DNA from: Methylococcaceae bacterium
GTDB lineage: Bacteria > Patescibacteriota > Microgenomatia > UBA1400 > PJMF01
DNA length: 64,000 nt
Assembly: GCA_044370175.1 (NCBI GenBank)
Contig: JBILVZ010000001.1
Span: 43,579 to 107,578 of the forward strand
Reading direction: 5' to 3'
In this document: one piece after another, positions 2,556 to 60,841 of the stretch
Layout: each line of letters opens with the position of its first letter
Numbering within the stretch: the first letter of the stretch is position 1
Position numbers and translations under genes: made by a program
The notes under the pieces: model-generated
Database searches by the model: none
Told to the model about the DNA's origin: nothing
Seen by the model: the letters and a program-made list of their open reading frames with translations, nothing else

Positions 2556-3056
2556 TTACTCAGCAGCTTCCAAAAATCCCTGCACGATCAGTGCTTCTGC
2601 CTCACTATGTGCGATACCGCGGCTCTTGAGATAAAAAAGTTGTGCTTCAGGAATATGGCTGATGCTGGCTGCATGTGAACACTTGACGTCGTCCGTTAAA
2701 ATTTCGAGTTCGGGGACAGCTTCTGCCTTGGCTGTGTCAGAAAGCAGCAAAATGCGCTCAGTCAAAAAGGCATTGGTATCTGGACAGTGCTCTGCGACGA
2801 TGATTCGTCCAGTGAAACTGACCTGAGCATGGTCTCGGACTACACCTTTGAGGACGGTGTTGGAACGAGTGTGTGCTGCCTGGTGGTTAATAATAACAGT
2901 AATATTTTTCTGTTCTTTGCCTGCAGCTGCAAAGATACCACTGATCGTAGCTTGCGCCCCCTCACCAGTGAGCTGGATTTCATACACACCAGGCGCATCG
3001 ATCGTGATGGTGCGGTGTACATCTCGAGCTAGTGTGTAGGTTTTTTTATCTTCCAT
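2556..3056 (-). CDS. sufD: SufD-like Fe-S assembly protein (short form, C-terminal beta-helix region only)
   Basis: 166 aa, similar to the C-terminal part of SufB/SufD (..ILTDDVKCSHAASISHI..EAQLFYLKSRGI..EAEALIVQGF..). Start overlaps the sufB stop (TAATG), indicating translational coupling. Confidence 0.6.
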   Translation of the reverse strand: MEDKKTYTLARDVHRTITIDAPGVYEIQLTGEGAQATISGIFAAAGKEQKNITVIINHQAAHTRSNTVLKGVVRDHAQVSFTGRIIVAEHCPDTNAFLTERILLLSDTAKAEAVPELEILTDDVKCSHAASISHIPEAQLFYLKSRGIAHSEAEALIVQGFLEAAE

Positions 3057-11322: not shown

Positions 11323-12918
11323 ATGACCACACCCGATAGCTCTGATGCACGCACCACGTCTGAAAGTCAAGCCAATGCTCAAATACCAGTGCATGCTCAG
11401 AGTGGACTGCCTCCTATTTCTGAGCTTTTTTCACAGTCATGGGGAAAGTTAAAATTAGGAATACTTAACGCCCTGCTACTAACGATCATATACCTGGTCG
11501 CTTTTATCCCAGTCATCTTAGTGGGTGGTGGGATCTTTGCTGGTTTAACTGCTGCAGTGATGCCACTTGGTGAGATTGCTAGTCTTATTGAAGCAGAAAG
11601 GTACATTGAGTTAGTAACAGCGCTTGGCCCTACACTGCTCATTGCGGGCGGTAGCTTTTTCATCTTTATGACCATTGTTGGTACAGTCTTGGTATCAGTA
11701 TACACGGGGGCAATGACATATGCATTTGCATGGGCTGAAAAAAAACCGTCTCTTGGAGAGGTTTTGCGTGCAGCATTTGGCAAAGTCGGTTGGCTCATTC
11801 TAGCAACTCTGCTTGTGGGGGCACTTACCTTTGGTAGTTTCTGGTTACTGTTCTTGCCTGCGTTACTTATCAGTATCTTTAGTGGATTTACACTTTTAGA
11901 AATACTCCTTGAAAATAAAAAACCGCTTGAGGCACTCCAGAATAGTATTAGTCTAACAGCCGCACATTTTTGGGGAATTGTGGGGAGATGGTTACTCTAT
12001 TTTGTTGGGTATATCATACTTTCCATGGTTTTCTCGGAGCTAGCGAGAGTCTCCAACGACTTGGTTAGTACCGTGTTTCGACTCGTTAACACTATCTTTT
12101 CTTACCTAAGCGGCTGGTTTGTGATGGCATTTATGGTTACCCTGTACATGCACGTCAAAGCTACCACACCTGCACCAGCTCCCAAAAAAGGGGTGTTTAC
12201 TACCTTTGTGGTGCTAGCTGTACTCGGCTGGCTTATCTTTGGTATAGGGTTAGTAGCGGCTATCAACCTTGTGCAAACCAACCTACCTCGCTGGTCTGAA
12301 ACTGCTGCACTGTCAAAAAGTATCAGTAAAACCTATAGCGACTCTGGAGCTGCTGCTAACATCGAAACGCTACCAGTCAAAACAAGCTGTGACTTTGAAC
12401 TTGGGATCCCGACAAACAGTGGTACAGATGAACGCTACTGGATTTATGAAGAACGCATGGTTGCTGCAAGTGCTTTTCGTGGCCTAGCACCAAATAAACA
12501 AACTGCCGCAGGTGTACAAGCAGGGTATCTTTCCTATAAAACAGATGAACAACGTCTGCCAAAAGATGGAGATGCTCCCTTTGACATTGGCTATCCTGGG
12601 CTGAGAATCTACTGTGTAGCGAATACTGAAAAGTTGACACTTGAGCGTTTTGTCGAACGGGCAACTGCTAGTACTGATTACACAATTACTACTAACGGAA
12701 GCAACCGTGCCTATGGTGATTTACTTGTACAACCAGTGACAATTGCAGGCTTAACTAATGGCGATTACTACAATGAACAAGGGTATATAGCTGTTACTCC
12801 AGGACCCACTTCTCAGTTAGTCTTAATCCAAACTGTCGGCACTGATGCAGATGATGCTGACATTGAAAAAATCTATATGCAATTAGAAGCTGCAGGCAAT
12901 ACCATCAAGAGCAACTAA
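11323..12918 (+). CDS. integral membrane protein with large C-terminal extracytoplasmic domain
   Basis: 531 aa. About 6-7 hydrophobic helices in residues 40-310, then a hydrophilic 220-aa C-terminal domain. No family recognised. Confidence 0.5.
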   Translation: MTTPDSSDARTTSESQANAQIPVHAQSGLPPISELFSQSWGKLKLGILNALLLTIIYLVAFIPVILVGGGIFAGLTAAVMPLGEIASLIEAERYIELVTALGPTLLIAGGSFFIFMTIVGTVLVSVYTGAMTYAFAWAEKKPSLGEVLRAAFGKVGWLILATLLVGALTFGSFWLLFLPALLISIFSGFTLLEILLENKKPLEALQNSISLTAAHFWGIVGRWLLYFVGYIILSMVFSELARVSNDLVSTVFRLVNTIFSYLSGWFVMAFMVTLYMHVKATTPAPAPKKGVFTTFVVLAVLGWLIFGIGLVAAINLVQTNLPRWSETAALSKSISKTYSDSGAAANIETLPVKTSCDFELGIPTNSGTDERYWIYEERMVAASAFRGLAPNKQTAAGVQAGYLSYKTDEQRLPKDGDAPFDIGYPGLRIYCVANTEKLTLERFVERATASTDYTITTNGSNRAYGDLLVQPVTIAGLTNGDYYNEQGYIAVTPGPTSQLVLIQTVGTDADDADIEKIYMQLEAAGNTIKSN

Positions 12919-16675: not shown

Positions 16676-18481
16676 TTACTTAAGATGAGTATTGCGCAAT
16701 CGCGCTTTAATGGCTTGCATTTCTATTGTGCTAATTTTTTTGCATGTATCAATATACGTAACCCCATATTGATACAAATCAAAGACATACGCCTGTTGAG
16801 TAGCCCCACTTGCTGAAAGAATCACTTTTTGAGGTTTAAAAGGCTTTGTTGCAGTTACATTGGTAACCAATAGTGCTTGTTGATTACTTGCCACAACTTC
16901 ACATGCGAGTTCATCCATATTCTTTTTAGAAATAATTATTTTATTTAGCTGTTTCGTATGCTGGAAACCACTTGGTTCAAGCTCATCAAGTATTGCTTCA
17001 TTTTGGTATTTTTTTGGATCATATTTATTAAAAAATGCGTAATACATTATGGGATCAGAGAAAAATGGTTGAATGTATATATAATGTGATGATTCATACC
17101 TCTGAAGATATGGCATAAGGGTATGTAAGTATGCATAGTAAAGATAATCATTCTTGTCAGAATGCACATACTGATAGTCCATGTAGAACTGTAGTGAATT
17201 AAATGTATATAACACAGTGATGCCAAGACAAATTCCCGTAAATAGCATATATTTTATTTTGTCATTTTGCGTAAAAAGACCTAAAAAGCTTTTGAATAAG
17301 GGTTTAAACAACTGAAAACCGATCGCAATACACATAACAAAGAATGGCAGGGCTACAGATAGTCTGACTCGTTGTGGGGCCCCCATTAAAGTGGAAGGAA
17401 GCACTGCGACTAAAATACCCAAGAGTATAAGTAATCTATGCTTATTCGATATATCTAGACCCAAATTTGGAACTCCAAAAAGAACATACACTATACCAAG
17501 TATAAAAAAGGGATATAAAACATATGAGAATGCTCCAAAACCTGAGACTGTCAGGTATGGTACATCAGTTTCTCCGTTTGTGGCCAAAAATTCTGCCGAA
17601 TAATTTTTAATGAAATGTCCAATTAGCTGATTACTAGCCGTAATTGGTTTATTCCAAAATATATCACACACATATCGAGGCATATGCCAGCTACAAAATG
17701 TACGATTTTCATTGATTCTCATCACAACACCTTGATCACTCAAAATCCCAGCTTGACTAAAACGCATGGTATTTACTGCGATGCTGTTAGGTAATAGAAA
17801 TGGCAGAATTGTTACAAAATAGGCTCCAAAAACTAAGACTATTGATTTTACATACAAATTCTCATGGAAATGTAGATAAACCAAGTATGCAAGTAAGATG
17901 ACAAATGTGACTGGTCGATATGCTATGTAGGCATACCAAGTTAATCCAATCACACATCCTGTTAGGAGTTTGTGCCACAACGTACTCTTTTCTTTCAAAC
18001 TCGTTAGGAAGCAAAGACCACCCATCCAGAAAAACAATCCGAGGTTAGACTCGAATCCAAATCTGCTCAAGATAAATGTCCAGGGACTAAATGCTACAAC
18101 AATTGCAGCTAGTAACCTTATACGTCGAGATAAACCTAAGTTTTTCGCTAAGACATAGGTTAGTGCGATGCTAGCTGTTCCAACTAACACTGATGGGAGC
18201 CTGACTACATATAATGATAGATCAAGCAACTTTATAAACGGTATCAGTAAATATCCGTATGCAGGCAATTTATAATCACCGAATGCTTTAAAAATGAGTG
18301 GCCATTGATTTCCATGTTCATCCGCTCCAGTTTGGAGAAGTGAATATGCAATATATCCAAAGTTCATCTCATCAACAAGTGCACCAATAGGTGCTTGATC
18401 TAATCTGTATAGCCGCAGCAATAGTCCCGCGACAACAATCAGAAAGAGCACAAACACAGAAATGTTTCTATATAATTTCAT
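16676..18481 (-). CDS. GT39/GT83-type (PMT/ArnT-like) polyprenyl-phosphate-sugar-dependent membrane glycosyltransferase
   Basis: 601 aa with more than 10 predicted TM helices. N-terminal loop motif ..LVDEMNFGYIAYSL..GADEHGNQWPLIF..DYKLPAYGYL.. is typical of the PMT_2/ArnT fold. Paralog of the gene at 26264..28096. Confidence 0.65.
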   Translation of the reverse strand: MKLYRNISVFVLFLIVVAGLLLRLYRLDQAPIGALVDEMNFGYIAYSLLQTGADEHGNQWPLIFKAFGDYKLPAYGYLLIPFIKLLDLSLYVVRLPSVLVGTASIALTYVLAKNLGLSRRIRLLAAIVVAFSPWTFILSRFGFESNLGLFFWMGGLCFLTSLKEKSTLWHKLLTGCVIGLTWYAYIAYRPVTFVILLAYLVYLHFHENLYVKSIVLVFGAYFVTILPFLLPNSIAVNTMRFSQAGILSDQGVVMRINENRTFCSWHMPRYVCDIFWNKPITASNQLIGHFIKNYSAEFLATNGETDVPYLTVSGFGAFSYVLYPFFILGIVYVLFGVPNLGLDISNKHRLLILLGILVAVLPSTLMGAPQRVRLSVALPFFVMCIAIGFQLFKPLFKSFLGLFTQNDKIKYMLFTGICLGITVLYTFNSLQFYMDYQYVHSDKNDYLYYAYLHTLMPYLQRYESSHYIYIQPFFSDPIMYYAFFNKYDPKKYQNEAILDELEPSGFQHTKQLNKIIISKKNMDELACEVVASNQQALLVTNVTATKPFKPQKVILSASGATQQAYVFDLYQYGVTYIDTCKKISTIEMQAIKARLRNTHLK

Positions 18482-18644
18482 ATACTCTGCATCTATGAAA
18501 ATAAATATCGTTGTATTTTGATATCTATAATTTGCTTCAGCAACGATGGAATTACAATTCTATTCGGCAGCGATTCAAAATAATAGTAGTAAATATACTA
18601 CGTACTGCCGTCCTAGTTTCCAAGATAAAGATGCAAAATTGGTC

Positions 18645-19862
18645 TTAATCTATAAAGGTTAACGCAATACCCTTTTGATCAGCACGACCGGTGCGACCAA
18701 TTCGATGGATATAGTCTTCGTATGTTTCAGGCACTTCGTAGTTAACAACGTGTGTGACGTTCTTCACGTCAATACCTCTTGAAGCTACATCTGTTGCGGT
18801 TAATACCTGAATCTTGTTTTTCTTGAACTGTTCCAAAGCGCGTTGGCGTTGGGACTGAGACTTATTGCCATGAATAGAAGCTACTCTAATACCACGAGCA
18901 TATAGATTCTGAGTTAATTTTTCGATACCATGTTTGGTTCTTCCAAAAATGAGTACCTTTTCCCAGCTTTCCTGGATCAAGAGCTCATGTAAGATCTCGA
19001 TCTTTGGACGACCATTGGTACGAATAACATCTTGATCAACGTTGGCAGAAGTATCCTGTGAAGGGATTTTAACGGTAATTGGATTACGCAAGAATTGCTG
19101 CATCAAACCAGCTACCTTCGCCGGCACAGTGGCCGAGAAGAAGAGCGATTGACGCTCCGTTGGTAGCTGAGCAATGATACGTTCGATGGTTTGGATGAAT
19201 CCCATGTCCAACATGCGATCAACTTCATCCAAGACAATACTTTGGAATCTATCAAAATGCAAAACCCTTTGTTTTGCCAAATCTTCAAGTCTTCCGGGCG
19301 TACCGATCACAAACTGTGGCTGCCTACGCAACCCAGCAATCTGGCCACCAAGGCCCACACCACCAATACATAACACTGAAGTAAGGCGCAGTTCACCAGA
19401 AAACCGGTGAAGCTCGTCTTCAATTTGTAGTGCCAGCTCACGAGTTGGAGCAATAATCAGGACTCGTTGTTCTGGATTGAGTGTAACTTTATTAATTAAA
19501 GGAATCAAAAACGCGGCGGTTTTACCCGTACCCGTTGATGCAATACCAATAATATCGTTACCTTCCAAAATTACAGGAATTGCCTGATCTTGAATTGGTG
19601 TTGGAGTTATGTACCCACGTCTTTCGATAGCGAAACGTAGTGCATCACAGACAGCAAAGTCTGCAAAAGCATGGGTTGGTTGATAGGCGACCTGTTCATC
19701 TGCTGTCGCCTTACGCACAAACAAAGAAGGATCGATGTATTGGCCTCTACTACGTGGTGCGCGTCTTTGACCACTGAATCCACCTGATCGTCTATTGGAA
19801 CTGAATCCGCCAGAACGTCCTTGTGAACCACGATCAGATCGCTCATTGCGAAATCGTTGCAC
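18645..19862 (-). CDS. DEAD-box ATP-dependent RNA helicase with N-terminal Arg/Gly/Ser-rich extension
   Basis: Motif I ASTGTGKTAAF, motif II DEVDRML, motif III SAT, motif VI HRIGRTGRA. The first 45 aa are RNERSDRGSQGRSGGFSSNRRSGGFSGQRRAPRSRG. Confidence 0.9.
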   Translation of the reverse strand: MQRFRNERSDRGSQGRSGGFSSNRRSGGFSGQRRAPRSRGQYIDPSLFVRKATADEQVAYQPTHAFADFAVCDALRFAIERRGYITPTPIQDQAIPVILEGNDIIGIASTGTGKTAAFLIPLINKVTLNPEQRVLIIAPTRELALQIEDELHRFSGELRLTSVLCIGGVGLGGQIAGLRRQPQFVIGTPGRLEDLAKQRVLHFDRFQSIVLDEVDRMLDMGFIQTIERIIAQLPTERQSLFFSATVPAKVAGLMQQFLRNPITVKIPSQDTSANVDQDVIRTNGRPKIEILHELLIQESWEKVLIFGRTKHGIEKLTQNLYARGIRVASIHGNKSQSQRQRALEQFKKNKIQVLTATDVASRGIDVKNVTHVVNYEVPETYEDYIHRIGRTGRADQKGIALTFID

Positions 19863-20043
19863 AAAACTTTCTTATGCTGAAAAAAAATACTAATTTGAGG
19901 GAAGTTTAACGTTGAAATTAAAGCTAACCACAGACGCACATTTAAGTCTGTGCATCACTTTTCAGTCATTAAATAGGAAGTATACCAGAATACGCCAAAA
20001 TGTCAAGAAACTATAGGATGTTTTGGCTGGTTGAGTACAAGCC

Positions 20044-26263: not shown

Positions 26264-28096
26264 TTATTCTTTACGAACCCGAGCAGAAACAGAGGCTTCT
26301 AGAATTTTTCTTATTTCTTCGGTTTGAGGTGATTTTTTTCCAAAAATCACATATGCTTTCTGTTTGTTTATATACTCTATCGTGTCTATAGCTTGATAAT
26401 TTGACGGGATGTAACATGCAGAATACCCAGAATTTTCAAAATACTTTAGAACAATGTACTGTGGATCAAACTGCAGTATCTTCTCTTGCAAGAGGTTATC
26501 TTGACATAAGTCAGAAGTTTGCACAAAGATTCGATTGCCGATTTGAAACTCCTTTGTTTTTAAGAAATATTTGGTGCCCTCTGTTTTTCTAATAGGCAGC
26601 TGTAAGAAATTTTGCCCTGCGAGAAAGTAGGGATAGATAAAAGTGTAGTCGTTGTCTCCTACTACCATTCGTTCTTCAGCAGATTGTCTGTTAATCCATT
26701 CTCCCAATGCATAGTCGGGGTATGATCTAAAGTAGGGTTTGTAATGAGGATTAATATAAAAATACTTAACAACAAAGGGTAGAAAATTTACACTCGAAAA
26801 CAAGGCAACTCCACCTAGTGCAAAGAGCAGTTGCTGAGATGCTTTCAGTCGATTAAACCATGCAAATTGCGCAATTAGCATAGAGAAAGCGATCGCAGCA
26901 ACCATTTGCCAAAACGGAGTCATTATAACCCCACGCTGGAAGTTGGGAAAGTCATCGATAGTTAGTGCCGTGGGGATAGCACTACACAACAAACAAAATA
27001 CTAAAAATAATAAAATCTTGTAATTACCAGGATCTTTTACATAGGCAAAAGGAGAGATGAGTAGTCCAATTGCCAACACAAAACCTAGATACTCAAGATA
27101 GGTAATAGGCGCTACATCAACTATCGTATATCGAGCAGGTGTATCAAGCTGGCCGAGCATGATTGTGGGTGAGAAAAAACTAACATACTGCAAGAAAAAC
27201 TGGTCGAAGTTTACCGAGACTTTGTTGTATATTGCTCGAGTGACAAGTGGTGGCAACTGTGCTAAACCGGATGTCGTAATGTCTTCAAAAATAGCTGCCT
27301 GTACTGACTGACTTTGAATAACTGTTGTTTCTTTGAACCGACCTTGCGCATATGGAGTCTGCAAAAATGTCAAAAAAGGAAAAATAAAATACGCCACTAA
27401 AACGCTCACAGAACCAATAATAACTCCCTTGCCAATACGATTATTTTGTAGGTAGGCAAATGCCAGCACACCAATACCAATTGGGATAATGAGTAATCGT
27501 GAAGTGAAGTATGTTAGATAACAAACAAGCGAAGTAATATACGCACCCGCAAATAATGTAAGCTGTGAAAACTGGAAACGCTGCTTGCCACTACTCCTAG
27601 CAGCAGAAGCAACTGCTTCGTAGAGAATAATGATAAAAACAAGCAGAAAGAACGTATCAATAATCACCGTTGAAGAAGCACGTGCCATACTAATATTCCA
27701 GGGAGAAAGTGCAAAGAGCAAACTAAAGATGAGTACTACAAGACTTTTTCGCGTCACTCGATAGAGAAAAAAAGCAGCTGCAAGGAGGGTGAGTAGTGAA
27801 AAAGTTACCGTAGTTAGGCGAAATGCCGCTGTATGTAAACCAAATAGAGAAATAAACGGCACCGCCCAGTACGAATGCGCCGCTGAGACGTGTTCTCCCC
27901 ACATATCAACCGTCAGTGGGAACTTTTCGTTGTATAGGTTTGTGCCTTGTTCAGCTAAAAGAAACGCATTGTATGCAAACCAGACTTCATCATGGTGCAA
28001 ACCTGAAGGAATATTTTGTAACTGCAACACTCGAACTAATAGGGCTACCCCGATGATGCATGAAAAAATAATTTTATACAAAGCAGTAATTTTCAT
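26264..28096 (-). CDS. GT39/GT83-type (PMT/ArnT-like) membrane glycosyltransferase
   Basis: 610 aa, polytopic. N-terminal loop ..HHDEVWFAYNAFLLAEQGTNLYNEKFPL.. carries the conserved acidic DE-type motif. Paralog of 16676..18481. Confidence 0.65.
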   Translation of the reverse strand: MKITALYKIIFSCIIGVALLVRVLQLQNIPSGLHHDEVWFAYNAFLLAEQGTNLYNEKFPLTVDMWGEHVSAAHSYWAVPFISLFGLHTAAFRLTTVTFSLLTLLAAAFFLYRVTRKSLVVLIFSLLFALSPWNISMARASSTVIIDTFFLLVFIIILYEAVASAARSSGKQRFQFSQLTLFAGAYITSLVCYLTYFTSRLLIIPIGIGVLAFAYLQNNRIGKGVIIGSVSVLVAYFIFPFLTFLQTPYAQGRFKETTVIQSQSVQAAIFEDITTSGLAQLPPLVTRAIYNKVSVNFDQFFLQYVSFFSPTIMLGQLDTPARYTIVDVAPITYLEYLGFVLAIGLLISPFAYVKDPGNYKILLFLVFCLLCSAIPTALTIDDFPNFQRGVIMTPFWQMVAAIAFSMLIAQFAWFNRLKASQQLLFALGGVALFSSVNFLPFVVKYFYINPHYKPYFRSYPDYALGEWINRQSAEERMVVGDNDYTFIYPYFLAGQNFLQLPIRKTEGTKYFLKTKEFQIGNRIFVQTSDLCQDNLLQEKILQFDPQYIVLKYFENSGYSACYIPSNYQAIDTIEYINKQKAYVIFGKKSPQTEEIRKILEASVSARVRKE

Positions 28097-52095: not shown

Positions 52096-53220
52096 ATGAA
52101 AATTATACAACTTGCACACACACCCCAAGAAGTAGTCATAGAGACAACCTGTGCTGTCTTGGCAGCTGGAGGTTTAGTGATTTTTCCTACCGAGACCACG
52201 TATGGCGCTGGAGTAGATGCTACCAACCAAACAGCGGTTGATAAACTACTTACCTATAAGTCGCGCCGTGAAGGAAAGCCTCTCTCGATTGCAGTAACCT
52301 CTCAAGAAATGGCAGAAAAATACGTAGTTCTCAATGACCAAGCACGTGCACTCTACGAGCAGTTTTTACCCGGCCCTGTGACCGTTGTTTCCCAAGATAA
52401 GGGAGTTGTGGCACAAGGAGTAGCCTCTGAGTTTGGGACTGTCGGGGTGCGTATCCCAGACTATCCACTGCTACTTAAACTACTTACGGTATACGGCAAG
52501 CCGATGACTGCCACTTCCGCCAATGGCTCTGGTCAAAAACGTCCCTACGCAATTCAAGATATCTTTGCCAACCTTTCTGAAAAGCAGAAAAACTTGATTG
52601 ACTTAGTGCTTGATGCTGGCACTTTGCCTGAAAATCCCCCCTCCACAGTGATTGATACCACCCTTTCTACACCAGTAACACTCCGTCAGGGTGATATTGA
52701 ACTTCAAACAGCCGTCGGCAAAAGCGGCACTGCGTATGAGCTTCGTTCTCAAAGCGAAGCAGAAACAAAAAGTATTGCAGGACGCCTTGTATTGAAGCAC
52801 TGGGATACAGTTGTAAAAAGAGGTCTCGTGATTGGACTTGATGGTCCACTGGGCGCTGGTAAAACTGTTTTTGCTAAAGGTGTGGCAGAGTTTTTGCAGA
52901 TTACTGACCTTCTCACCTCACCCACCTATACCTACAGTGAAGAATATGAGTATACCCGTCATCAAACAACAGGCAAGCTGTATCACTTAGATATGTGGAA
53001 AGTTGATTCTCAAGCAATTTTTGAAAAACTAGAGCTTGCAGCTTCACTCAAGCCTGGGACTGTGATGGTGATTGAGTGGTGGTCACAGATTGCCGCATAC
53101 TTCCAGCCCATCCTTACCGACCAAAGCGTGCCTGTGGTTACTGTTCTTTTAAACGAACAAGCTACTCCACTTGCAGATACAACTGCCCCACGTCTTTTAC
53201 AGATTCGGGAGACTACATGA
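52096..53220 (+). CDS. fused TsaC (Sua5/YrdC, threonylcarbamoyl-AMP synthase) - TsaE (YjeE P-loop ATPase) protein
   Basis: Residues 1-200 have the YrdC fold motifs (..VIFPTETTYGAGVDA..KSRREGKPLSIA..LPGPVTVV..SANGSGQ..). Residues 230-374 are TsaE-like (..GLDGPLGAGKTVFAKG..LTSPTYTY..YHLDMWKV..). The stop overlaps the tsaD start (ATGA). Confidence 0.7.
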   Translation: MKIIQLAHTPQEVVIETTCAVLAAGGLVIFPTETTYGAGVDATNQTAVDKLLTYKSRREGKPLSIAVTSQEMAEKYVVLNDQARALYEQFLPGPVTVVSQDKGVVAQGVASEFGTVGVRIPDYPLLLKLLTVYGKPMTATSANGSGQKRPYAIQDIFANLSEKQKNLIDLVLDAGTLPENPPSTVIDTTLSTPVTLRQGDIELQTAVGKSGTAYELRSQSEAETKSIAGRLVLKHWDTVVKRGLVIGLDGPLGAGKTVFAKGVAEFLQITDLLTSPTYTYSEEYEYTRHQTTGKLYHLDMWKVDSQAIFEKLELAASLKPGTVMVIEWWSQIAAYFQPILTDQSVPVVTVLLNEQATPLADTTAPRLLQIRETT

Positions 53221-54413
53221 AATTGGGTCTCATTCTGGCAATTGATACTTCTTGTGATGACACCAGTGTTGCAGTGACCTGTGGGACTCAGGTTCTTTCC
53301 AATGTAATTGCCTCACAGACCCAACTACACAAGCCGTATGGTGGGGTATTCCCCACCGTTGCTAAACTAGCACATAGAGAAAATATTGATAAAACGGTGG
53401 CAATAGCGCTCAAACGAGCACACGTTTCTATGGCTGATATCGCTGCTTTAGCAGTGACCGTTGGTCCCGGACTTGCTCCAGCACTTGAAGTGGGCATTGC
53501 TGCTGCAAAAGCTCTGGCACAGACTCATGCAAAACCACTGATTGCTTGTAATCACCTAGAGGGGCATCTGCTCTCGGTGCTGGCAGAACCACTCAGCGGT
53601 TCTGCTCGAAAACAAGCCTTCAGCACAACCCTTCTTGAGCAAGACCAACTGCTCCTTCCTGCAGATGACTTGAAAGTAAAACTCCCTGCACTCTCACTTA
53701 TCATTTCAGGAGGAAATACCTTGTTTGTGTTGGTTAAAGATGTAGGTACGTATGAAGTTCTTGGTAGAACACTTGACGACGCTGCAGGTGAGTGTTTGGA
53801 TAAGATTGGACGGATGCTCAACTTAGGATACCCGGCTGGACCAGTTATGGAAGAGTTTGCAAGGTTAGGAAATAAAGACGCCTATCCGTTTCCCCTTCCA
53901 CTGACAACTGTTAAAACCTATGACGTGAGTTTTTCAGGAATGAAGACGTTTGCTCGCAACTTGTTGGATACACTAACCGCAGAACGACCACTTAATCGTC
54001 AAGAAATGTACGACTTTTGTGCGAGTGCTCAACAAGGCGTATTTAGACATATTTGTTATAAACTCACCAAGATTTTGGAAGATCTCTATGCGCAAGCGTA
54101 TACAAAAAACTATGCAAACGTAGCATTTTCTTCTCAGCAAAATAAAGATTTTGCCGTCCAGGGAGTCTGGCTGGGTGGTGGTGTTGCAGCAAATATGACG
54201 CTGCGCAAGATGTTGCGCGATACACTACGCAACTTCACTCAAAAGAATTCACTTACTTCACTGAGACTGCGTACCCCGTATACTAAGAGACTCTGTGCTG
54301 ATAATGCAGCGATGATTGGGGTGGTGGCAGGAGTTACTGAAAAAATTCGTTTTACTGTGGAAAATCTTGCGTTTGTTGAGAGAGCTCCAAGACTACCTTT
54401 AGATGGAAACTAA
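53217..54413 (+). CDS. tsaD: tRNA N6-adenosine threonylcarbamoyltransferase TsaD (Kae1/YgjD family)
   Basis: 399 aa from ATG 53217 (MKLGLILAIDTSCDDTSVAV..). ..GGVFP.., His pair ..CNHLEGHLL.., ..SGGVAAN.. The upstream 47 codons of the listed ORF are probably not translated. Confidence 0.85.
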   Translation: MKLGLILAIDTSCDDTSVAVTCGTQVLSNVIASQTQLHKPYGGVFPTVAKLAHRENIDKTVAIALKRAHVSMADIAALAVTVGPGLAPALEVGIAAAKALAQTHAKPLIACNHLEGHLLSVLAEPLSGSARKQAFSTTLLEQDQLLLPADDLKVKLPALSLIISGGNTLFVLVKDVGTYEVLGRTLDDAAGECLDKIGRMLNLGYPAGPVMEEFARLGNKDAYPFPLPLTTVKTYDVSFSGMKTFARNLLDTLTAERPLNRQEMYDFCASAQQGVFRHICYKLTKILEDLYAQAYTKNYANVAFSSQQNKDFAVQGVWLGGGVAANMTLRKMLRDTLRNFTQKNSLTSLRLRTPYTKRLCADNAAMIGVVAGVTEKIRFTVENLAFVERAPRLPLDGN

Positions 54414-54730
54414 GTTGATTTTCCAGCCTTTTCGTACTCTTCTACCATTTTTTGGGTTACATCACTGCGTAGTTGTTCAATAGACATCCCAGTACGCTCT
54501 TGAAAGAGTTTTGATAATTTCTCAATGCGTTCTTCCTCTGATGCTGCATGCATTGAGTCTGGAGAAAGTATGACGTCTGCTAATTTTGCCGTGAGCTCAT
54601 CCATTACCCGGTTTGCTACTTGGCTCATAAAACGCCCCATCATAAATGCAATTGTTTCTTGAGAGAACCCTGCTTTTTCAAGATGCTCTCTCATACGATT
54701 AGCAGCAGTAATATCTACATTTTGTGACAT
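54410..54730 (-). CDS. hypothetical small protein downstream of the 1288-aa ORF
   Basis: 106-aa acidic, helical ORF starting 10 nt after the large ORF stop on the same strand. Confidence 0.4.
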   Translation of the reverse strand: MSQNVDITAANRMREHLEKAGFSQETIAFMMGRFMSQVANRVMDELTAKLADVILSPDSMHAASEEERIEKLSKLFQERTGMSIEQLRSDVTQKMVEEYEKAGKST

Positions 54731-54739
54731 ACTATATCC

Positions 54740-57700
54740 TTAATTAACTTTTGCTTGTGCATATTGTATGCGATAAGCCGAGTCATTTCCATTAAAAAGT
54801 GCTGGGTCAAAAATATTTATTGCAGCGAATGCCCCATTGATTCTCTCCGCAGACAATTGACCATTTACTGGCGTAAGCAACCCACTCACCTGAGGATTTC
54901 CTAATGCTCGGGCTAAGATCTCGTTTTGTTGAGCCACGGAAAGTTCTACAGATCTACCAGCTATGTTTACTGTCACCGGAGTCATATCACCCTCTATAAC
55001 ATGCGCTAACACAACTGCAGCTGGAGAAAGGCCAAGCCGAGCATCTGACACATCAATTGTAGTAGCTTCTTGTGGAGTAATTGGACTTTCTTGTGAATGC
55101 AGTGCATCCTGAATCCCGGCTTCAAGTTTTACTTGGGCCTGATGACCTAGCACCGCCAGCTTTAATTCATTATCAGGTTGTAATTTTTGTAATGCTTGCT
55201 CATATGGCTCTGTCATTACATGCTCGGCAAAATAATGAATCACATTTTTCCCTGCTTCATTGTTTCCCAACCGTTCTAGAATCTGAGGGTATTGTTGCCG
55301 TAATTCGCCATAGAGCGAATCAACATTTGGGTGAGCTTGTGCAAGATCTTCAGTTGCAGTAAGAGCAGTGGCAGTCTCCTTTTGTGCCGCATCCTGTGTG
55401 GCTACTGCTGTCGTAGTTTCTCCAGTAGTCGGCTGTTCACTTGGTTGTATCTCTGCTTGAGTAGCAGTTGCTGGTAAAACAGTACTTGCTTGATCATGGG
55501 TATTAGTTCTATCAAACAACCCCTCAAGCACGTCCGCATGATTTCGGGCTATTGTCTCTGCCGACCACTCAGTGCCAAGACCCCCGCCTCCCACAGCTGG
55601 GAGTGCATTGAAGCCAGTGCGTAAATCTGTGGCCAACTGATCGGCAGCAGTTGGACTACTGTAGGTAGCATAGAGTAACTTTGCCATAGCTTCAGCTTGA
55701 GCAGGTGAAGGCACAACCCCTGCTATTTCTGTAGTATTAGTCATAAACTGCATCATCTCATCATATGAAGCAAAGGTATCAGCACTGACAACTTGATCCC
55801 CATTTGAAAGATCCTGATATGGTTGATTACGTGCCTCTGCTATCGCTAGGTTGGTAGCTTTTGTCCAATCTTTAATGCCGTCTGCAACTTCAGCTACACT
55901 GACTTGTCTATGTCCTTCTGGAAGTGGTAAGCTATTCAGCTCAGTCACTACTTGGGTACTTGCCTCCTCTGCCATATGCCATATATGTGGTTCATTAAAA
56001 GTTTCTGGTTTGAGTGTTACTACTTCAGCAGGTTCAGTGAGAGCAGTTGACTCAACAGTTGGAGCTGTTTCAATAGGTTGCGCAGAGACGTTGGGAATAT
56101 CAAAAGTAGTAATAGCTCGCTGCCATAATCTCTGTGCCATGGTTGTGGCGGTTTCAGGCAATTTTTCTGTATCAATTTGTATGTTGTCCAGATCAATACT
56201 CTGTGGTTGAGATGGCTTTACATCTATAACTGGAGTATTTGACTGTGCCTCTGAGGCTGTCACAGTCTCTCTCCCATTGAAGTCATCATACGTCGTCGAT
56301 CTGACTGTATTTGCAGCAGTCACAGTAGTATCTTTGCCTGTACCAAACAGAGTTCTTACATTTTCTCCTACCAAAGAATCTTCTGAAAATGGTGGTTGCT
56401 CACCTGGTCGCAGGTCAGTTATTGGCTTGAGGTAAAAATCAGTTGTAATACTACGTGAATCTGCCTTTGCTGCCAGTGTTTCAGCAGCATGACCAGATGC
56501 TTCTAAAGCAAATCCTTGTGCATCTATTACTAGATGTGACTTTCCATTGGCATCAGGTTGTACTGTCAAGTGTATGGCATAGTCACCATTTTCTAGACCA
56601 AGGTCTGCGCTACCTGGTTCTTGATGGCCAATAAGCCACACCCCATTAGAATCGTTGGGATCACGAATTACTGAAGTACTTTCAAAATCAGCAAATGTGT
56701 GTGGGACCTCAACCATTTGACCATTGAGAGACACGTGATCTCCCCAGTTGACAACGTTTTCAGTAGGTTGGATAGCCGCAGAGTGTCCAACATTTAACGC
56801 ACTACTTTCAGCACGACTGACTGTGTGAAAACTCTCGTCGCCAGGGAATTCCCCATGATGGTTAGGATCAACTCTATAATTACGTGGAGGAGGAACAATC
56901 TCCCCAGATGGATTAGCTGCTTCTCCATGATGTTTATCTGTTGTTACTACAGCTATGCCACTGGTATGCGTATTCACATGAGTTGGTTCTACTCCTTCAG
57001 GGGTGGGAGTAGGCAACGGACTTTGTGGTTGTTCAAAGGATTCGGCAGTAAGGGTACTGAGTGGCGTAGGGACCTGACTGGTACTTTCTGGAGAAGGTGT
57101 AGCCACAGTCGTTGCGTCTTGTGTAAGTTGCTCTGTCTGAACTGGACTGTTGAGAGTATCAATTCCAGCAACCCCCAAATTAAATGCAAGTGAACCAAAT
57201 GCATATCCCAGCGAGAACTTAGCGACCTCAGCAACGCCTAATCTCCCTGCTGATAGCTTGTTTATTACATCTTCCAACTTATCAGATCCTCGGAAAAATG
57301 CTCGATAGACTTGCTCTGTTACGTTGGGATCAGTATTGTAATAATTGGCCAGCCTTCCCCGGAGATAGGCTGCCCCACCGAACGATGCTGCAGTAACCAA
57401 ACTGCTCACCATTTGAATTGTCATATTTATATTGGCAATATCAGCTTCAACACCAACCGACCGCAAACCCAGCGCTACTGCATTGACCGCCACACCTGAG
57501 CCTATACCCGCATACAGTGACTTTCCTGCTGTCAGAGCTGTTAACATTTTTTTCCACTTAGGAATACGTTGCTCTTCAGCTAAAAATCCTTCCAGTACTC
57601 TTGCTTGATCTTCACTGAGCGCTTCTTGACTCAGTTTTACGTTAATTTCTTGATCTGCAGTTATTGTTGAGCTATATCCATCATCGTTGGTAAATAGTGT

Positions 57701-58606
57701 GCCATCAAGTCGAGTAATCAGTGCTGCTGATTCAAGTGTTTGTGGGTCAATCTTGCCTAGTACAAGCCTCAGCTTGATCAGTGAACATCGCAGTTCTAGC
57801 CCTTGCTCATACACCGGGATCTTATCAGTGTCCCTATTAATCGAAATCATTCGATTTAAAGTGTCCATGACTTCCCAGGTGAGATCATACTGTAGTACAT
57901 TGGATTGCCTCAAGGTGAGGATATGCTTTTTAAATTCTGCAGCAGATTGTAGTGCCAGCTCTCGTATGAGACGATCTGCGGTACGCATCTGTTCAGCCGA
58001 GCCAAGTGGGGTGACATGAACAAGGCGATCAAAAGTATTTTCATTACCCTGTTCATCTTCAGGGAGTGTTAGTCCCAATCTTTTCCGCAAACCAATATAG
58101 AGAAGTAACATTTGGTACGTTTGTCGTGCTTTTTCCTCTAAGTCAGCGTGTAACGTATTGTGCGTGGGTGCGGAATCTGCAGCAGTTGCTAACGAGTCTG
58201 TTGATAGATTTTCCTTAATGTCTTGCAGGCTCCGCATCTCTGCACGTAGTCGACTACCTAGATCTGATAAACCTATAAACTTTAGTTCATCAGTCCTGAG
58301 TGTAGAATCCTGTGTATCGTAGGAGTTTTGCCATGCATCTACAACAGTTCTAATATGGCTATTCTCCTGTCTAGAACTTTCTTGGGCTGGTTGATGTTCT
58401 GATGCCGTGGTTTGTAGAGCGTTTACTACTTCAGTATCTAGAGAGGACTCTTTTTCTTGAGATTTCGTTGTCCAGATTTTATCAAATCCTTCAAAAAATT
58501 CCATATGTCCTTTTGTAGTTTTTGTGGTATTACTTTTGCTCGGCTGTATACACAATATACTATCACTATAGCAAAGAGAGCTGCCATAGTGCAAATTACA
58601 ATGCAC
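54740..58606 (-). CDS. very large hypothetical multi-domain protein (1288 aa)
   Basis: Continuous ORF. About 350 aa of N-terminal hydrophilic region, then three hydrophobic segments (..GIGSGVAVNAVALGLRSV.., ..MTIQMVSSLVTAASFGGAAYL.., ..LGYAFGSLAFNLGVAGI..). A Pro/Thr/Ser-rich linker (..TPSPESTSQVPTPLSTL..PLPTPTPEG..) and about 700 aa of further domains follow. No N-terminal signal peptide. No known motif recognised. Confidence 0.5.
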   Translation of the reverse strand: MHCNLHYGSSLCYSDSILCIQPSKSNTTKTTKGHMEFFEGFDKIWTTKSQEKESSLDTEVVNALQTTASEHQPAQESSRQENSHIRTVVDAWQNSYDTQDSTLRTDELKFIGLSDLGSRLRAEMRSLQDIKENLSTDSLATAADSAPTHNTLHADLEEKARQTYQMLLLYIGLRKRLGLTLPEDEQGNENTFDRLVHVTPLGSAEQMRTADRLIRELALQSAAEFKKHILTLRQSNVLQYDLTWEVMDTLNRMISINRDTDKIPVYEQGLELRCSLIKLRLVLGKIDPQTLESAALITRLDGTLFTNDDGYSSTITADQEINVKLSQEALSEDQARVLEGFLAEEQRIPKWKKMLTALTAGKSLYAGIGSGVAVNAVALGLRSVGVEADIANINMTIQMVSSLVTAASFGGAAYLRGRLANYYNTDPNVTEQVYRAFFRGSDKLEDVINKLSAGRLGVAEVAKFSLGYAFGSLAFNLGVAGIDTLNSPVQTEQLTQDATTVATPSPESTSQVPTPLSTLTAESFEQPQSPLPTPTPEGVEPTHVNTHTSGIAVVTTDKHHGEAANPSGEIVPPPRNYRVDPNHHGEFPGDESFHTVSRAESSALNVGHSAAIQPTENVVNWGDHVSLNGQMVEVPHTFADFESTSVIRDPNDSNGVWLIGHQEPGSADLGLENGDYAIHLTVQPDANGKSHLVIDAQGFALEASGHAAETLAAKADSRSITTDFYLKPITDLRPGEQPPFSEDSLVGENVRTLFGTGKDTTVTAANTVRSTTYDDFNGRETVTASEAQSNTPVIDVKPSQPQSIDLDNIQIDTEKLPETATTMAQRLWQRAITTFDIPNVSAQPIETAPTVESTALTEPAEVVTLKPETFNEPHIWHMAEEASTQVVTELNSLPLPEGHRQVSVAEVADGIKDWTKATNLAIAEARNQPYQDLSNGDQVVSADTFASYDEMMQFMTNTTEIAGVVPSPAQAEAMAKLLYATYSSPTAADQLATDLRTGFNALPAVGGGGLGTEWSAETIARNHADVLEGLFDRTNTHDQASTVLPATATQAEIQPSEQPTTGETTTAVATQDAAQKETATALTATEDLAQAHPNVDSLYGELRQQYPQILERLGNNEAGKNVIHYFAEHVMTEPYEQALQKLQPDNELKLAVLGHQAQVKLEAGIQDALHSQESPITPQEATTIDVSDARLGLSPAAVVLAHVIEGDMTPVTVNIAGRSVELSVAQQNEILARALGNPQVSGLLTPVNGQLSAERINGAFAAINIFDPALFNGNDSAYRIQYAQAKVN

Positions 58607-58636
58607 TATGGCAGCTCAGCCGTTATGTGGCAGCCG

Positions 58637-60841
58637 CTATATCGGACAGGCACCACTCTCACACTTCAAGTGTTCATAGTCGATGTCTTCAAGCAACTCC
58701 TCTTCATTTTCGATCTCATTGAGGACGCGCATAAACTCACTGATAGTGACTGGTTGTTCTGGTTGGTACTCATAGGCAGTACTATCTTGTTGTGGCATAA
58801 CTGAGCAACACTTAATGAGTCCTTGGTACTTGCGCACCATCTCAGCAAACTCCTCATACTTCACCCGTTTTGGATCATACTTGAGGGTGTAGGAGACTTG
58901 GTTGCCCGTGTCTTCTAGTGGTTTGCCATTCTCATTAACCCCGACAATCCAGTATTTTTCAAGCAACATTAGCCATTTGTACTGCTCTTCTGGAGTGGCT
59001 TCACCTGCAGTCACGAGCTCACCATTCATACCCAGACGGCAAATGAGTGGCTGGGTGGGAAAGCCCACCACGGTAGAACCTTGATAACTCCTCAGCTCTT
59101 TGACTGGATACCCTTTTTTCTTGTACTTCTCCACCTGTGGATCGTCACTGCGATACTGCACCCAGCGGATGTACTCACGCATAGATGGTAAGTGGGCACC
59201 TTCCGTCAGAGCAAACAGCTTAGAGATCGTCCCCGAAGGTTTGATGGTCGTGTTGGTGTGCGGCACATTCACCTTCAAGAGCTTGGAGTACTTTTCTGCC
59301 TCATCAACGACGGCTCGTTTAAAACGGGACAGCGTCATCCAGAAGTCTTTGGTTTTTTCTTCATCGATCAGGTCGCGAAAGGCATAGCCAAACGTATTCC
59401 AGGCAAATTCGTGAATCCCCGTCATACCCACACCAATCCGGTTGGTGCGCTTGACCTCGCGGTTGTACAAACTATCCATGAAACTGTTGACCCGGATCAA
59501 TGCCCGAGTAGTAGCTCGGAAAGCCTCTTCAGCGTCGTTAATGGTAGGACAGTAGTAGGGTACGACATCAGAGATCACACAGTAGCCTCCCAGCATGTTG
59601 AGTGAAATCTCACCACAGGGGTTGGGGATCTGCGTGTAGACTTTGGCGGCTGCATTACGAGCAATACGAGACAACATTTTTTCTGTACGAGCTAATGGCT
59701 TGTATTTTTTACTCTCGGCATACTTGCCATCAGCATAGTTATCAAAACCTTCGTCGTTCTGCACTAGGCGGTGTTGATTGACAAAACCTGGCTCACCGGT
59801 GCCATCTTCATAGGCTGCTTTGAGAATTGTCTCCAAGACTTTGCGGGCATGATTGGTGCGCTGCTTCCAGAACTTGTCGTCAACAGCCACTGAGTTGTTG
59901 GCACTCCACAAGAAACCGCCACGTTTGATATTGATGAAGTCAAAAATTTCAGGATCATTCCATGCTTTAGTAGCAATCCGTGCACTGCGGCGAGCACCAC
60001 CCACCAGCACACACTCAGCCAAGTAGTGATCGACAAACATCGCTTGCTTCCAAGGAGACATCCCAGCACCTTTGATGGTGGCCACTTTTTCAATTGCATT
60101 CATCAGTGGCTTTGGACCAGAAGAAGGGCGGTTCTGCATACCACGGATTGGTGCTCCTTTAGGGCGAACTTTAGAAAAGTCCAAAATGAGGATACCGTCT
60201 TTGTGTTTTTTCTCAAAAGCCATCATTTCCATCATTTCAATGGCTTGCGACCAGCCTTCTCGGCTGTCTGGTACTTCAAACCAAGTGACACTTTCACTCT
60301 CGCCATATTTGTGGCGTGCATCGCGGACACTTTCATCAAAACCCCAGACGAAATCAGCGTGTGAGTCATCAATTACGCAGCGAACATTTGGCATGTTGTC
60401 CCAGTTGACTACACACAGATCATCGTCATAAGGCCTGCCTACTCCTGAGCCATTCATCAGTAAGTAAAACAGGACGTATGATGCAGTAGCAGTAGAACAG
60501 TTGGTAAAGACCTCCATGTTGCGCTCTGCTTGAGAGATATCCCCATGTTGGAGGTGGCGACCAGACATCAGAATCGAGCCATTACTAATATGTTTTTTCA
60601 AAATGGCATAGTCTTCTTGGCGGTGTTTGTCAAACTTCTTATTTTTTGAGTACCCCAGCAAACTAGTATTTCCCAGAGCCACACGTTCGGCCACTTCTTC
60701 CCAAGTTTCCCAGCGCTCATGACCACTTTTAGCATCGATGACACGGCGCAAATAGGTACGGCGCGCCACAGCCATTCCCATCCCACCATCGAGTTTACGA
60801 TTGATAAAGGTCATTTTCTTTTTTGGCAGACTTGGTGACAT
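58637..60841 (-). CDS. nrdJ: class II (adenosylcobalamin-dependent) ribonucleotide reductase, NrdJ-like
   Basis: 734-aa monomeric RNR-sized protein. N-terminal ATP-cone-like region. Finger-loop catalytic motif ..IPNPCGEISL.. C-terminal redox Cys pair ..CESGACPI. No glycyl-radical motif. Confidence 0.7.
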   Translation of the reverse strand: MSPSLPKKKMTFINRKLDGGMGMAVARRTYLRRVIDAKSGHERWETWEEVAERVALGNTSLLGYSKNKKFDKHRQEDYAILKKHISNGSILMSGRHLQHGDISQAERNMEVFTNCSTATASYVLFYLLMNGSGVGRPYDDDLCVVNWDNMPNVRCVIDDSHADFVWGFDESVRDARHKYGESESVTWFEVPDSREGWSQAIEMMEMMAFEKKHKDGILILDFSKVRPKGAPIRGMQNRPSSGPKPLMNAIEKVATIKGAGMSPWKQAMFVDHYLAECVLVGGARRSARIATKAWNDPEIFDFINIKRGGFLWSANNSVAVDDKFWKQRTNHARKVLETILKAAYEDGTGEPGFVNQHRLVQNDEGFDNYADGKYAESKKYKPLARTEKMLSRIARNAAAKVYTQIPNPCGEISLNMLGGYCVISDVVPYYCPTINDAEEAFRATTRALIRVNSFMDSLYNREVKRTNRIGVGMTGIHEFAWNTFGYAFRDLIDEEKTKDFWMTLSRFKRAVVDEAEKYSKLLKVNVPHTNTTIKPSGTISKLFALTEGAHLPSMREYIRWVQYRSDDPQVEKYKKKGYPVKELRSYQGSTVVGFPTQPLICRLGMNGELVTAGEATPEEQYKWLMLLEKYWIVGVNENGKPLEDTGNQVSYTLKYDPKRVKYEEFAEMVRKYQGLIKCCSVMPQQDSTAYEYQPEQPVTISEFMRVLNEIENEEELLEDIDYEHLKCESGACPI

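Follow-up and report, generated by a model that had tools for sequence, protein, structure and literature searches.

What does the largest gene of this stretch of DNA encode, and what is the small gene directly behind it for? The stretch, called here the window, comprises 64,000 nucleotides (nt) of contig JBILVZ010000001.1 (assembly GCA_044370175.1, positions 43,579 to 107,578 of the forward strand), and the relatives of its nrdJ place the host among the Patescibacteria, in the Microgenomates/"Pacebacteria" group of the candidate phyla radiation (CPR). Both genes lie on the minus strand between nrdJ and the convergent tsaD. A first-pass annotation, made from the sequence, had drawn the two open reading frames (ORFs) in these places and had likened the large product to membrane-anchored surface proteins, secreted effectors or the giant proteins of ultrasmall episymbiotic bacteria. 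The places are right, the gap between the two genes is 9 nt, and the likeness to ultrasmall bacteria agrees with the host. Our tentative answer to the question, held with less than even confidence, is that the pair forms a lineage-restricted accessory cassette of the cell envelope. In this cassette the large protein would be a surface protein anchored in the membrane with its N-terminal side in the cytoplasm and its C-terminal side outside (N-in/C-out), and the small protein would be its cytoplasmic helper.

The two genes and their relatives

The large ORF is uninterrupted over 54740..58606 on the minus strand and would encode 1288 amino acids (aa) if read from a GTG, the length given by the first-pass annotation. 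This GTG at 58606 was excluded as the start because it lies inside an apparent nrdJ terminator, a perfect 16-bp hairpin with a T-tract (58617-58578) directly after the nrdJ stop codon. An ATG at 58504 has the Shine-Dalgarno sequence AAGGA 5 nt upstream, and the Joint Genome Institute (JGI) gene call for a 98 % identical orthologue is 1254 aa. The large gene is 54740..58504 (minus strand), with 1254 aa plus the stop codon, and residues are numbered accordingly below unless stated (the earlier 1288-aa numbering minus 34). As had been noted, it is the largest gene of the window and adjoins nrdJ.

The large protein had no matches (0) in Pfam, NCBIfam and PADLOC and none in PDB by sequence or profile, and PHROGs gave two matches only, both non-significant (E above 0.05). 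A word-indexed search of 5.8 billion proteins returned P0001 alone (98 % identity). When 1.84 billion cluster representatives were searched exhaustively with HMMER, P0001 came up again, joined only by the distant P0002 (1726 aa). No relatives were found by scanning species-representative genomes with the large protein, or metagenome contigs with either the single sequence or alignment A1, and a tblastn search of 50,697 phage records was without a match. The absence of any recognisable motif is thus borne out by family and structure searches, and no domain of the protein was assigned to a housekeeping family. The ORF is intact in all relatives; since this holds for three strains and the distant homologue, it is no chance ORF. 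P0002 aligns with the window protein in three collinear blocks, to which the identity of ~24 % is confined. The first is the hydrophobic module (window protein 291-510, P0002 626-843) and the other two are C-terminal (827-1030 and 1060-1244, E = 5e-11 and 9e-10). The linker motif SPLPTPT..EPTH is also common to both proteins. Moreover, the P0002 locus has the same order of nrdJ, large gene, small gene and tsaD, with nrdJ 89 % and tsaD 52 % identical to those of the window.

The architecture described earlier, namely a soluble N-terminal part, three hydrophobic segments, a Pro/Thr-rich linker and a long C-terminal part, is present in all its elements. The N-terminal helical region (residues 1-314; 57563..58504, minus strand as for all parts of the gene) has a cytoplasm-like content of Lys and Arg (K/R), is hypervariable between strains and cannot be aligned with P0002. 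The central module (315-448; 57161..57562), conserved with P0002, consists of a basic juxtamembrane segment, PKWKKML, and three Gly/Ala-rich marginal helices. A linker rich in Pro, Thr, Ser and acidic residues follows (~449-525; 56930..57160), of which the first 30 residues are without K/R; it contains SPLPTPTPEGVEPTH, shared with P0002, and Pro plus Thr make up 29 % of residues 501-600. The middle region (~526-826; 56027..56929) is poorly conserved and mostly predicted to be disordered; it has two HHGE motifs and a small patch of beta structure. The mostly helical C-terminal domain (827-1254; 54743..56026) shows the best conservation with P0002, is K/R-poor and has no Cys. The secondary-structure trend of a low-confidence AlphaFold2 (AF2) model runs from helical up to ~450, through mostly coil with a small beta patch at 470-770, to helical again from ~835 to the end. 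The whole protein is strongly acidic (net charge -82), and only one of its 1254 residues is Cys (P = 0.007 at the Cys frequency of housekeeping proteins). It has no signal peptide, the N-terminus MEFFEGFDKIWTTKSQEKESS being without a hydrophobic core, and Gram-positive-type wall anchoring is absent, with no C-terminal hydrophobic tail, no LPxTG and no wall-binding domain in Pfam. Internal or tandem repeats were not found.

The small-partner gene (54410..54730, minus strand; 106 aa) starts 9 nt past the stop codon of the large gene, and its own stop codon overlaps that of the convergent tsaD (plus strand) at 54410-54413. Because of this overlap there is no intergenic terminator between the small partner and tsaD. 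Equally tight packing of these two genes is seen in the loci L083 and L086. The product had been described as acidic and helical. It is helical, since AF2 with an 8-sequence alignment models four helices at residues 7-19, 24-54, 65-80 and 84-104 (predicted local distance difference test, pLDDT, 80.5; predicted template modelling score, pTM, 0.65), but it is only mildly acidic, with 18 Asp plus Glu against 14 Lys plus Arg. It carries neither a signal peptide nor a hydrophobic segment, and the curated family collections gave sub-threshold matches only.

Homologues of the small partner were found by jackhmmer among the small ORFs of the fetched loci in L001, L005, L008, L019 and L082, and the small partners are homologous across the subfamilies of large proteins described below (E = 1e-33 to 1e-39). 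A profile search of the 5.8-billion-protein database put the family at 7 clusters. Wherever the context was examined, the small gene has a large orphan ORF immediately before it and a convergent tsaD immediately behind it, and Gly21 and Gly32 are invariant in the family. The small partner varies less than its large neighbour and is the most conserved element of the family.

One reading of the pair that starts from the small protein is a transmembrane signalling system, in which the C-terminal domain of the large protein would sense the outside and hold or release a small helix-turn-helix (HTH)-like regulator in the manner of anti-sigma and sigma factors. The two invariant glycines would suit such a regulator, as would QETIAFMMGRFMSQVANRVM, which by eye fits 5/7 canonical HTH positions, and the weak sub-threshold matches of residues ~3-45 to HTH_ParB, HTH_3, DUF6074 and a PADLOC 'control protein'. 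However, all HTH-type matches stay below the curated thresholds, residues 24-54 are modelled as a single continuous helix (pLDDT ~90) with no HTH, and the structure searches gave no significant match to proteins with an HTH or a sigma region 4. In addition, the small protein is net acidic and the large protein showed no anti-sigma domain. We consider this reading very unlikely.

Three identities were tried for the small protein and rejected. For an HTH DNA-binding protein, the matches lie below the cut-offs, the helix 24-54 is continuous in the AF2 model and there is no fold match. For a WXG100-type small substrate of a type VII secretion system (T7SS), the protein is without Trp and has four helices rather than two, and no EssC/FtsK-type ATPase was seen among the window ORFs examined. 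The name 'rubrerythrin', given by JGI to its 98 % identical orthologue (P0003), has no support in Pfam or NCBIfam and looks spurious.

A variable slot between nrdJ and tsaD

The address of the two genes is fixed, while what is found there differs from genome to genome. A conserved frame was seen in 50 loci: nrdR-nrdJ, a gap, the convergent tsaD and tsaC/E, yidC, an SPFH gene and groES/EL. In the window, the upstream flank of the gap is nrdJ for a class II ribonucleotide reductase (58637..60841, minus strand), the upstream border is its intrinsic terminator (58578..58617, minus strand), and the downstream flank is tsaD (53217..54413, plus strand). The gap between nrdJ and tsaD measures from 16 nt to 8.4 kb across loci, and sequence homology between loci ends exactly at the nrdJ stop codon.

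Cargo was compared within the clade whose nrdJ is at least ~79 % identical. Within it the slot is empty in L002, L011 and L018, and most other loci carry one to three large ORFs of 540-1450 aa on the same strand. Most of these slot ORFs are orphans and appear mutually unrelated by BLAST, and a few of their products have C-terminal PP2C, AAA_5 or glycosyl-hydrolase domains. The PP2C ends occur in L030 (15459-18473) and L032 (12188-13990) and the AAA_5 domain in L033 (14481-18833), and none of these proteins has a signal peptide or a small partner. In a more distant clade (nrdJ ~70 %), the slot holds ordinary conserved genes for a class A penicillin-binding protein and a cytidylate kinase. Since nrdJ is unusually conserved, divergence was calibrated by the other flanking genes. 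L002, a genus-level relative with GroEL 92 % identical, has an empty slot, and L030, with nrdJ 93 % identical, has unrelated cargo; therefore, the cassette is accessory. As a separate observation, L083 encodes a 575-aa large serine recombinase (Resolvase; 18194-19921, minus strand) ~8 kb downstream of the slot, beyond groEL and not adjoining the cassette.

Such presence and absence among related genomes would also be expected of a mobile element or a prophage remnant, and a tape-measure-like protein could be a large helical orphan with central Gly/Ala-rich hydrophobic segments. Against this, the slot borders have no integrase, transposase or phage genes, no tRNA-type or other RNA elements and no repeats. 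Codon usage is not foreign, with GC and GC at third codon positions (GC3) native-like, and the PHROGs and phage-record searches mentioned above gave no significant match. A phage or mobile-element origin is scarcely credible on this evidence.

The large partners comprise subfamily A (the window protein, P0001 and P0002), subfamily B (L005, 994 aa; L008, 1031 aa) and subfamily C (L019, 914 aa; L083, 892 aa; L086). No significant match between the three subfamilies was obtained with BLAST, jackhmmer or hhalign. The top hhalign match in all three subfamily pairs falls at one place, the start of the hydrophobic block, and alignment gives four shared features in the same order: a motif S-x-L-[ST]-x-x-[QK]-K-[END]-x-[LFV], three hydrophobic helices rich in Gly and Ala, a basic loop that connects helix 2 with helix 3, and a K/R-free stretch rich in Pro, Thr, Ser and acidic residues. 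P0002 and every member of B and C carry the motif in a juxtamembrane position, immediately ahead of the hydrophobic block; the version in the window protein, GFLAEEQRIPKWKKML, is degenerate. In 721 k aa of locus and window ORFs the motif occurs 9 times, most of them apparently in members of the family. These proteins diverge fast: where GroEL is 83-84 % identical, yidC, the fastest-diverging flank gene, is 50 % and the small partner 26 % identical, and the large partner shows no detectable similarity.

These relationships bear on whether the pair is a polymorphic toxin with a downstream immunity protein, as the phrase 'immunity-like partner' in the first-pass annotation had suggested. A large multi-domain protein, a small ORF 9 nt downstream and a variable locus with swapped cargo would all suit a toxin and its antidote. 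However, the small protein is homologous across A, B and C while the C-termini of the large partners are dissimilar and their N-termini unconserved, and no match to a toxin or immunity family was found. The partner thus fails to follow the C-terminus in its variation, which speaks against a toxin-immunity pair, and we judge such a pair highly improbable; the immunity label is therefore not retained.

A broader possibility concerns the slot as a whole. It may be a diversification hotspot in which a conserved chassis, made of the motif, the three-helix module and the partner, receives swapped, unrelated N- and C-terminal domains and serves as a modular display or delivery system for interaction with host or partner cells in ultrasmall bacteria that have only Sec. 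This is a conjecture that we think unlikely. If true, the hotspot would have its functional counterparts in polymorphic toxin loci or in the swapping of phage receptor-binding proteins, but would consist of entirely new parts.

Proposed membrane topology and possible role of the partner

The three hydrophobic stretches lie at residues 329-347, 363-381 and 430-448 (363-381, 397-415 and 464-482 in the 1288-aa numbering). They had been called membrane-like, and they are the most hydrophobic stretches of the protein, but only marginally hydrophobic, with a Kyte-Doolittle maximum of 1.46. Crude and approximate sums of Hessa insertion free energies (dG) gave +4.2 to +5.3 kcal/mol for the three helices and -0.9 to +3.8 kcal/mol for the transmembrane (TM) helices of YidC and of a Rce1-like protein in the window.

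The charges around these helices point more clearly to a direction. There is a charge of +4 before helix 1 and of -2 in loop 1, loop 2 carries six K/R, and the 30 residues after helix 3 have 0 K/R and a net charge of -4. This pattern fits the positive-inside rule for an N-in/C-out protein. The asymmetry extends to the whole family: the N-side K+R content is 7.7-12.4 % in 6/6 full-length members, near the 12.0 % of housekeeping proteins, and on the C-side it is 5.0-7.3 %, with zero Cys, again in 6/6. Exclusion of Cys and depletion of K/R are typical of exported regions in monoderm bacteria. The family-wide charge asymmetry and Cys depletion thus favour an N-in/C-out membrane protein whose C-terminal region would be exported. 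The earlier comparison with membrane-anchored surface proteins gains from this asymmetry, the Cys depletion and the K/R-free linker, and it suffers from the marginal helices and from an N-terminal region that evolves fastest.

We propose that the central module of three Gly/Ala-rich helices would hold the large protein in the cell membrane, with the helical N-terminal region (~315 aa) staying in the cytoplasm. The third helix may act as an internal, uncleaved export signal, from which Sec/YidC would move the Pro/Thr/acid-rich linker and the remaining C-terminal part of ~730 residues to the outside. The linker could then serve as a wall-spanning stalk that presents the conserved C-terminal helical domain at the cell surface, where this domain would plausibly contact a partner or host cell or the environment. 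The small protein is probably cytoplasmic, because it lacks a signal peptide and a hydrophobic segment. The partner is conserved most, and the large partners share only the motif and the hydrophobic module; therefore, it is most likely the module that the partner binds. There the small four-helix protein might act as a holdase, an insertion adaptor or a cytoplasmic subunit at the conserved juxtamembrane and membrane module. What has been reported for these organisms supports such a picture in its general lines. Patescibacteria depend on Sec-SRP/YidC and type IV pili and send proteins of very large size preferentially to the surface (PMC13059738). Moreover, CPR bacteria have large, rapidly evolving orphan surface proteins (PMC11809585) and Pro/Thr-rich hypervariable surface genes (PMC6851277).

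The same helices can be read in another way. Because they are marginal and often contain embedded charges, a conditionally inserting or a soluble protein is conceivable. The large protein could be a secreted effector or translocator that inserts conditionally into a target (host) membrane, and the small partner would then be a chaperone that masks the helices before export. The family-wide conservation of marginal hydrophobicity would make sense for such a protein, and so would its high acidity, the absence of a signal peptide, and the tight coupling (the 9-nt gap) and co-inheritance of the small partner. In addition, other slot proteins without signal peptides carry effector-like C-terminal enzymes (PP2C in L030 and L032, AAA_5 in L033). 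On the other hand, these PP2C and AAA_5 proteins have no small partner, no type III (T3SS), IV (T4SS), VI (T6SS) or T7SS system was seen in the window, and no similarity to known translocators or chaperones was found. The bacteria concerned are also reported to have essentially Sec/YidC and type IV pili (PMC13059738). An exported effector is, in our view, rather unlikely.

A protein that is never exported is the other way to read weak helices. The large protein might be a cytoplasmic or membrane-peripheral scaffold with the small protein as its subunit, comparable to the Mycoplasma proteins HMW1, HMW3 and P65, which are acidic, rich in proline and part of the cytoskeleton of the attachment organelle. 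The absence of a signal peptide and helices too weak for confident TM segments would then need no special explanation, and long helical regions combined with an acidic Pro/Thr-rich disordered region would be in keeping with such proteins. Fast evolution of the N-terminal region would pose no problem if the protein were wholly intracellular and weakly constrained. However, a scaffold leaves the drop of K/R on the C-side, the absence of Cys there (6/6 proteins) and the positive-inside pattern unexplained, and no homology to the Mycoplasma proteins was detected. We regard a scaffold as unlikely.

The evolution of the N-terminal region can be followed at the level of strains. Between the window and L001, the flanking genes are 99.8-100 % identical, and the large gene has 48 substitutions, of which 44 fall in the first 925 nt. 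In this hypervariable tract pS is 0.067 and pN 0.041 (pN/pS = 0.62), and pS is 0.003 in the rest of the gene. Of the 48 substitutions, 36 are transitions and 12 are transversions, and there is no bias towards adenine. The pattern is consistent with the import of a divergent allele of a region that is weakly constrained or diversifying. A target of a diversity-generating retroelement was considered and rejected, as there is no A bias, the substitutions spread over 925 nt and the region has no repeats. In a third strain, L087, the C-terminal 612 aa are intact and align without gaps at 98.9 % protein identity. The differences of L087 cluster at 56033-56066, a patch of 34 nt (~residues 813-824, disordered) with substitutions and compensating indels that keep the frame, and the surrounding kilobases are nearly identical.

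Returning to the membrane-anchored surface protein, several results weigh against it. The main tension is that the fastest-evolving region is the predicted-cytoplasmic N-terminus, which is also unalignable between the window protein and P0002, although the most variable part of such a protein should be its exposed ectodomain. The helices are marginal in every family member (+2.2 to +8.2 kcal/mol by the crude dG sum), several contain embedded charges, and those of P0002 are the weakest of the family. In the Pfam search of the large protein, surface-type domains such as adhesin, Ig or FN3 domains were not found. Structure prediction lends little help, as the AF2 model of residues 55-1254 from a 3-sequence alignment reached a pLDDT of 30 and was unusable for a fold search, and Foldseek found no significant neighbour of the small-partner model in PDB or BFVD. 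The common module is itself faint between subfamilies, with hhalign reaching only E = 0.02-0.05. A hidden Markov model (HMM) built from the B and C cores did not retrieve the window protein among 3,562 decoy ORFs, and P0002 was recovered at no better than E = 6, albeit at the correct position. Because this model failed on the window protein, the case for homology across subfamilies comes down to the motif, the architecture, the partner and synteny. By these marks, homology of the central module across subfamilies is likely but unproven.

Comparison with known systems and other features of the window

Large proteins of other CPR bacteria are the nearest standard of comparison. We considered the FhaB/DUF2341-containing proteins of Patescibacterium danicum (PMC11809585), the proteins of >1,500 aa that are targeted to the surface in Absconditicoccaceae (PMC13059738) and the hypervariable surface gene with PTD repeats in a Gracilibacterium (PMC6851277). 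The window protein resembles them in its CPR host, in being encoded by the largest gene of its region, in having no full-length homologues, in its strain hypervariability and Pro/Thr-rich linker, and in its putative location in the envelope. It differs from them in having no signal peptide or N-terminal TM helix, no FhaB, FN3, Ig or SLH domains and no repeats. Instead, it has a proposed internal three-helix anchor of marginal hydrophobicity, its most variable part is the predicted-cytoplasmic N-terminal region, and its cassette has a conserved small, probably cytoplasmic partner and a fixed address in a flexible slot. The family is new and extremely small and fits among the fast-evolving large envelope proteins known from CPR bacteria.

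Other systems resemble the cassette in part. Like polymorphic toxin and immunity cassettes, it combines a large modular protein with a tightly linked small ORF at a locus with replaceable cargo, but its partner does not co-vary with the C-terminus and no conserved N-terminal trafficking domain is present. In T3SS, hydrophobic translocators are paired with class II chaperones. This pairing offers an analogy, as the window protein has weakly hydrophobic central helices and an adjoining gene for a small, all-helical acidic protein. Here, however, no specialised secretion genes are nearby, the partner is no TPR protein, its gene lies downstream, and neither sequence nor fold is similar. The slot also recalls flexible genomic islands in its conserved flanks and in a gap content of 16 nt to 8.4 kb that includes unrelated orphan genes, but it differs in the absence of integrase, tRNA or direct repeats at its borders, and its cargo is usually one very large orphan ORF on the strand of nrdJ instead of an island of several genes.

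A large fraction of bacterial diversity belongs to the Patescibacteria, which presumably live attached to other cells, and few of the molecules of this cell contact are known outside Saccharibacteria. The present family is concrete and tiny, with 7 partner clusters, three large-protein subfamilies and a fixed genomic address. Its presence/absence polymorphism between genus-level relatives, together with strain hypervariability, would be expected of a determinant of host range or envelope interaction. The partner and the juxtamembrane motif can be used to find members that searches with the large protein miss. Even if the protein should be cytoplasmic instead, it would be a clear example of fast divergence in large CPR proteins, being already unrecognisable at a GroEL identity of 84 %.

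Housekeeping genes make up the remainder of the window, among them those for SufB, PNPase, DnaK, FtsH, IF-2 and GroES/EL. Further ORFs without a Pfam match at E <= 1e-5 are 26264-28096 (minus strand, 610 aa) and 11323-12918 (plus strand, 531 aa). Next to tsaD, a fused tsaC(Sua5/YrdC)-tsaE of 374 aa (52096-53220, plus strand) overlaps the tsaD start with its end; its Pfam assignment was taken from the 99 % identical copy in L087. The gene for SufB (3056-5617, minus strand; 853 aa) is split by an intein that carries a LAGLIDADG homing-endonuclease domain, seen in Pfam as Hint_2, Intein_splicing and LAGLIDADG_3 between SufBD_N and SUFBD_core. The nrdJ orthologues in L083/L084 (4131-7229) and L048 (10001-13072) encode 1032 aa, compared with 734 aa in the window, and the extra ~300 aa are probably also an intein insertion. 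Finally, GTDB records with the Patescibacteria-type nrdJ-tsaD-yidC-groEL synteny (L005-L080) are often titled 'uncultured Pseudomonadales', 'Vitreimonas', 'Limisphaerales' or 'TM6', and are probably mislabelled or contaminated bins.

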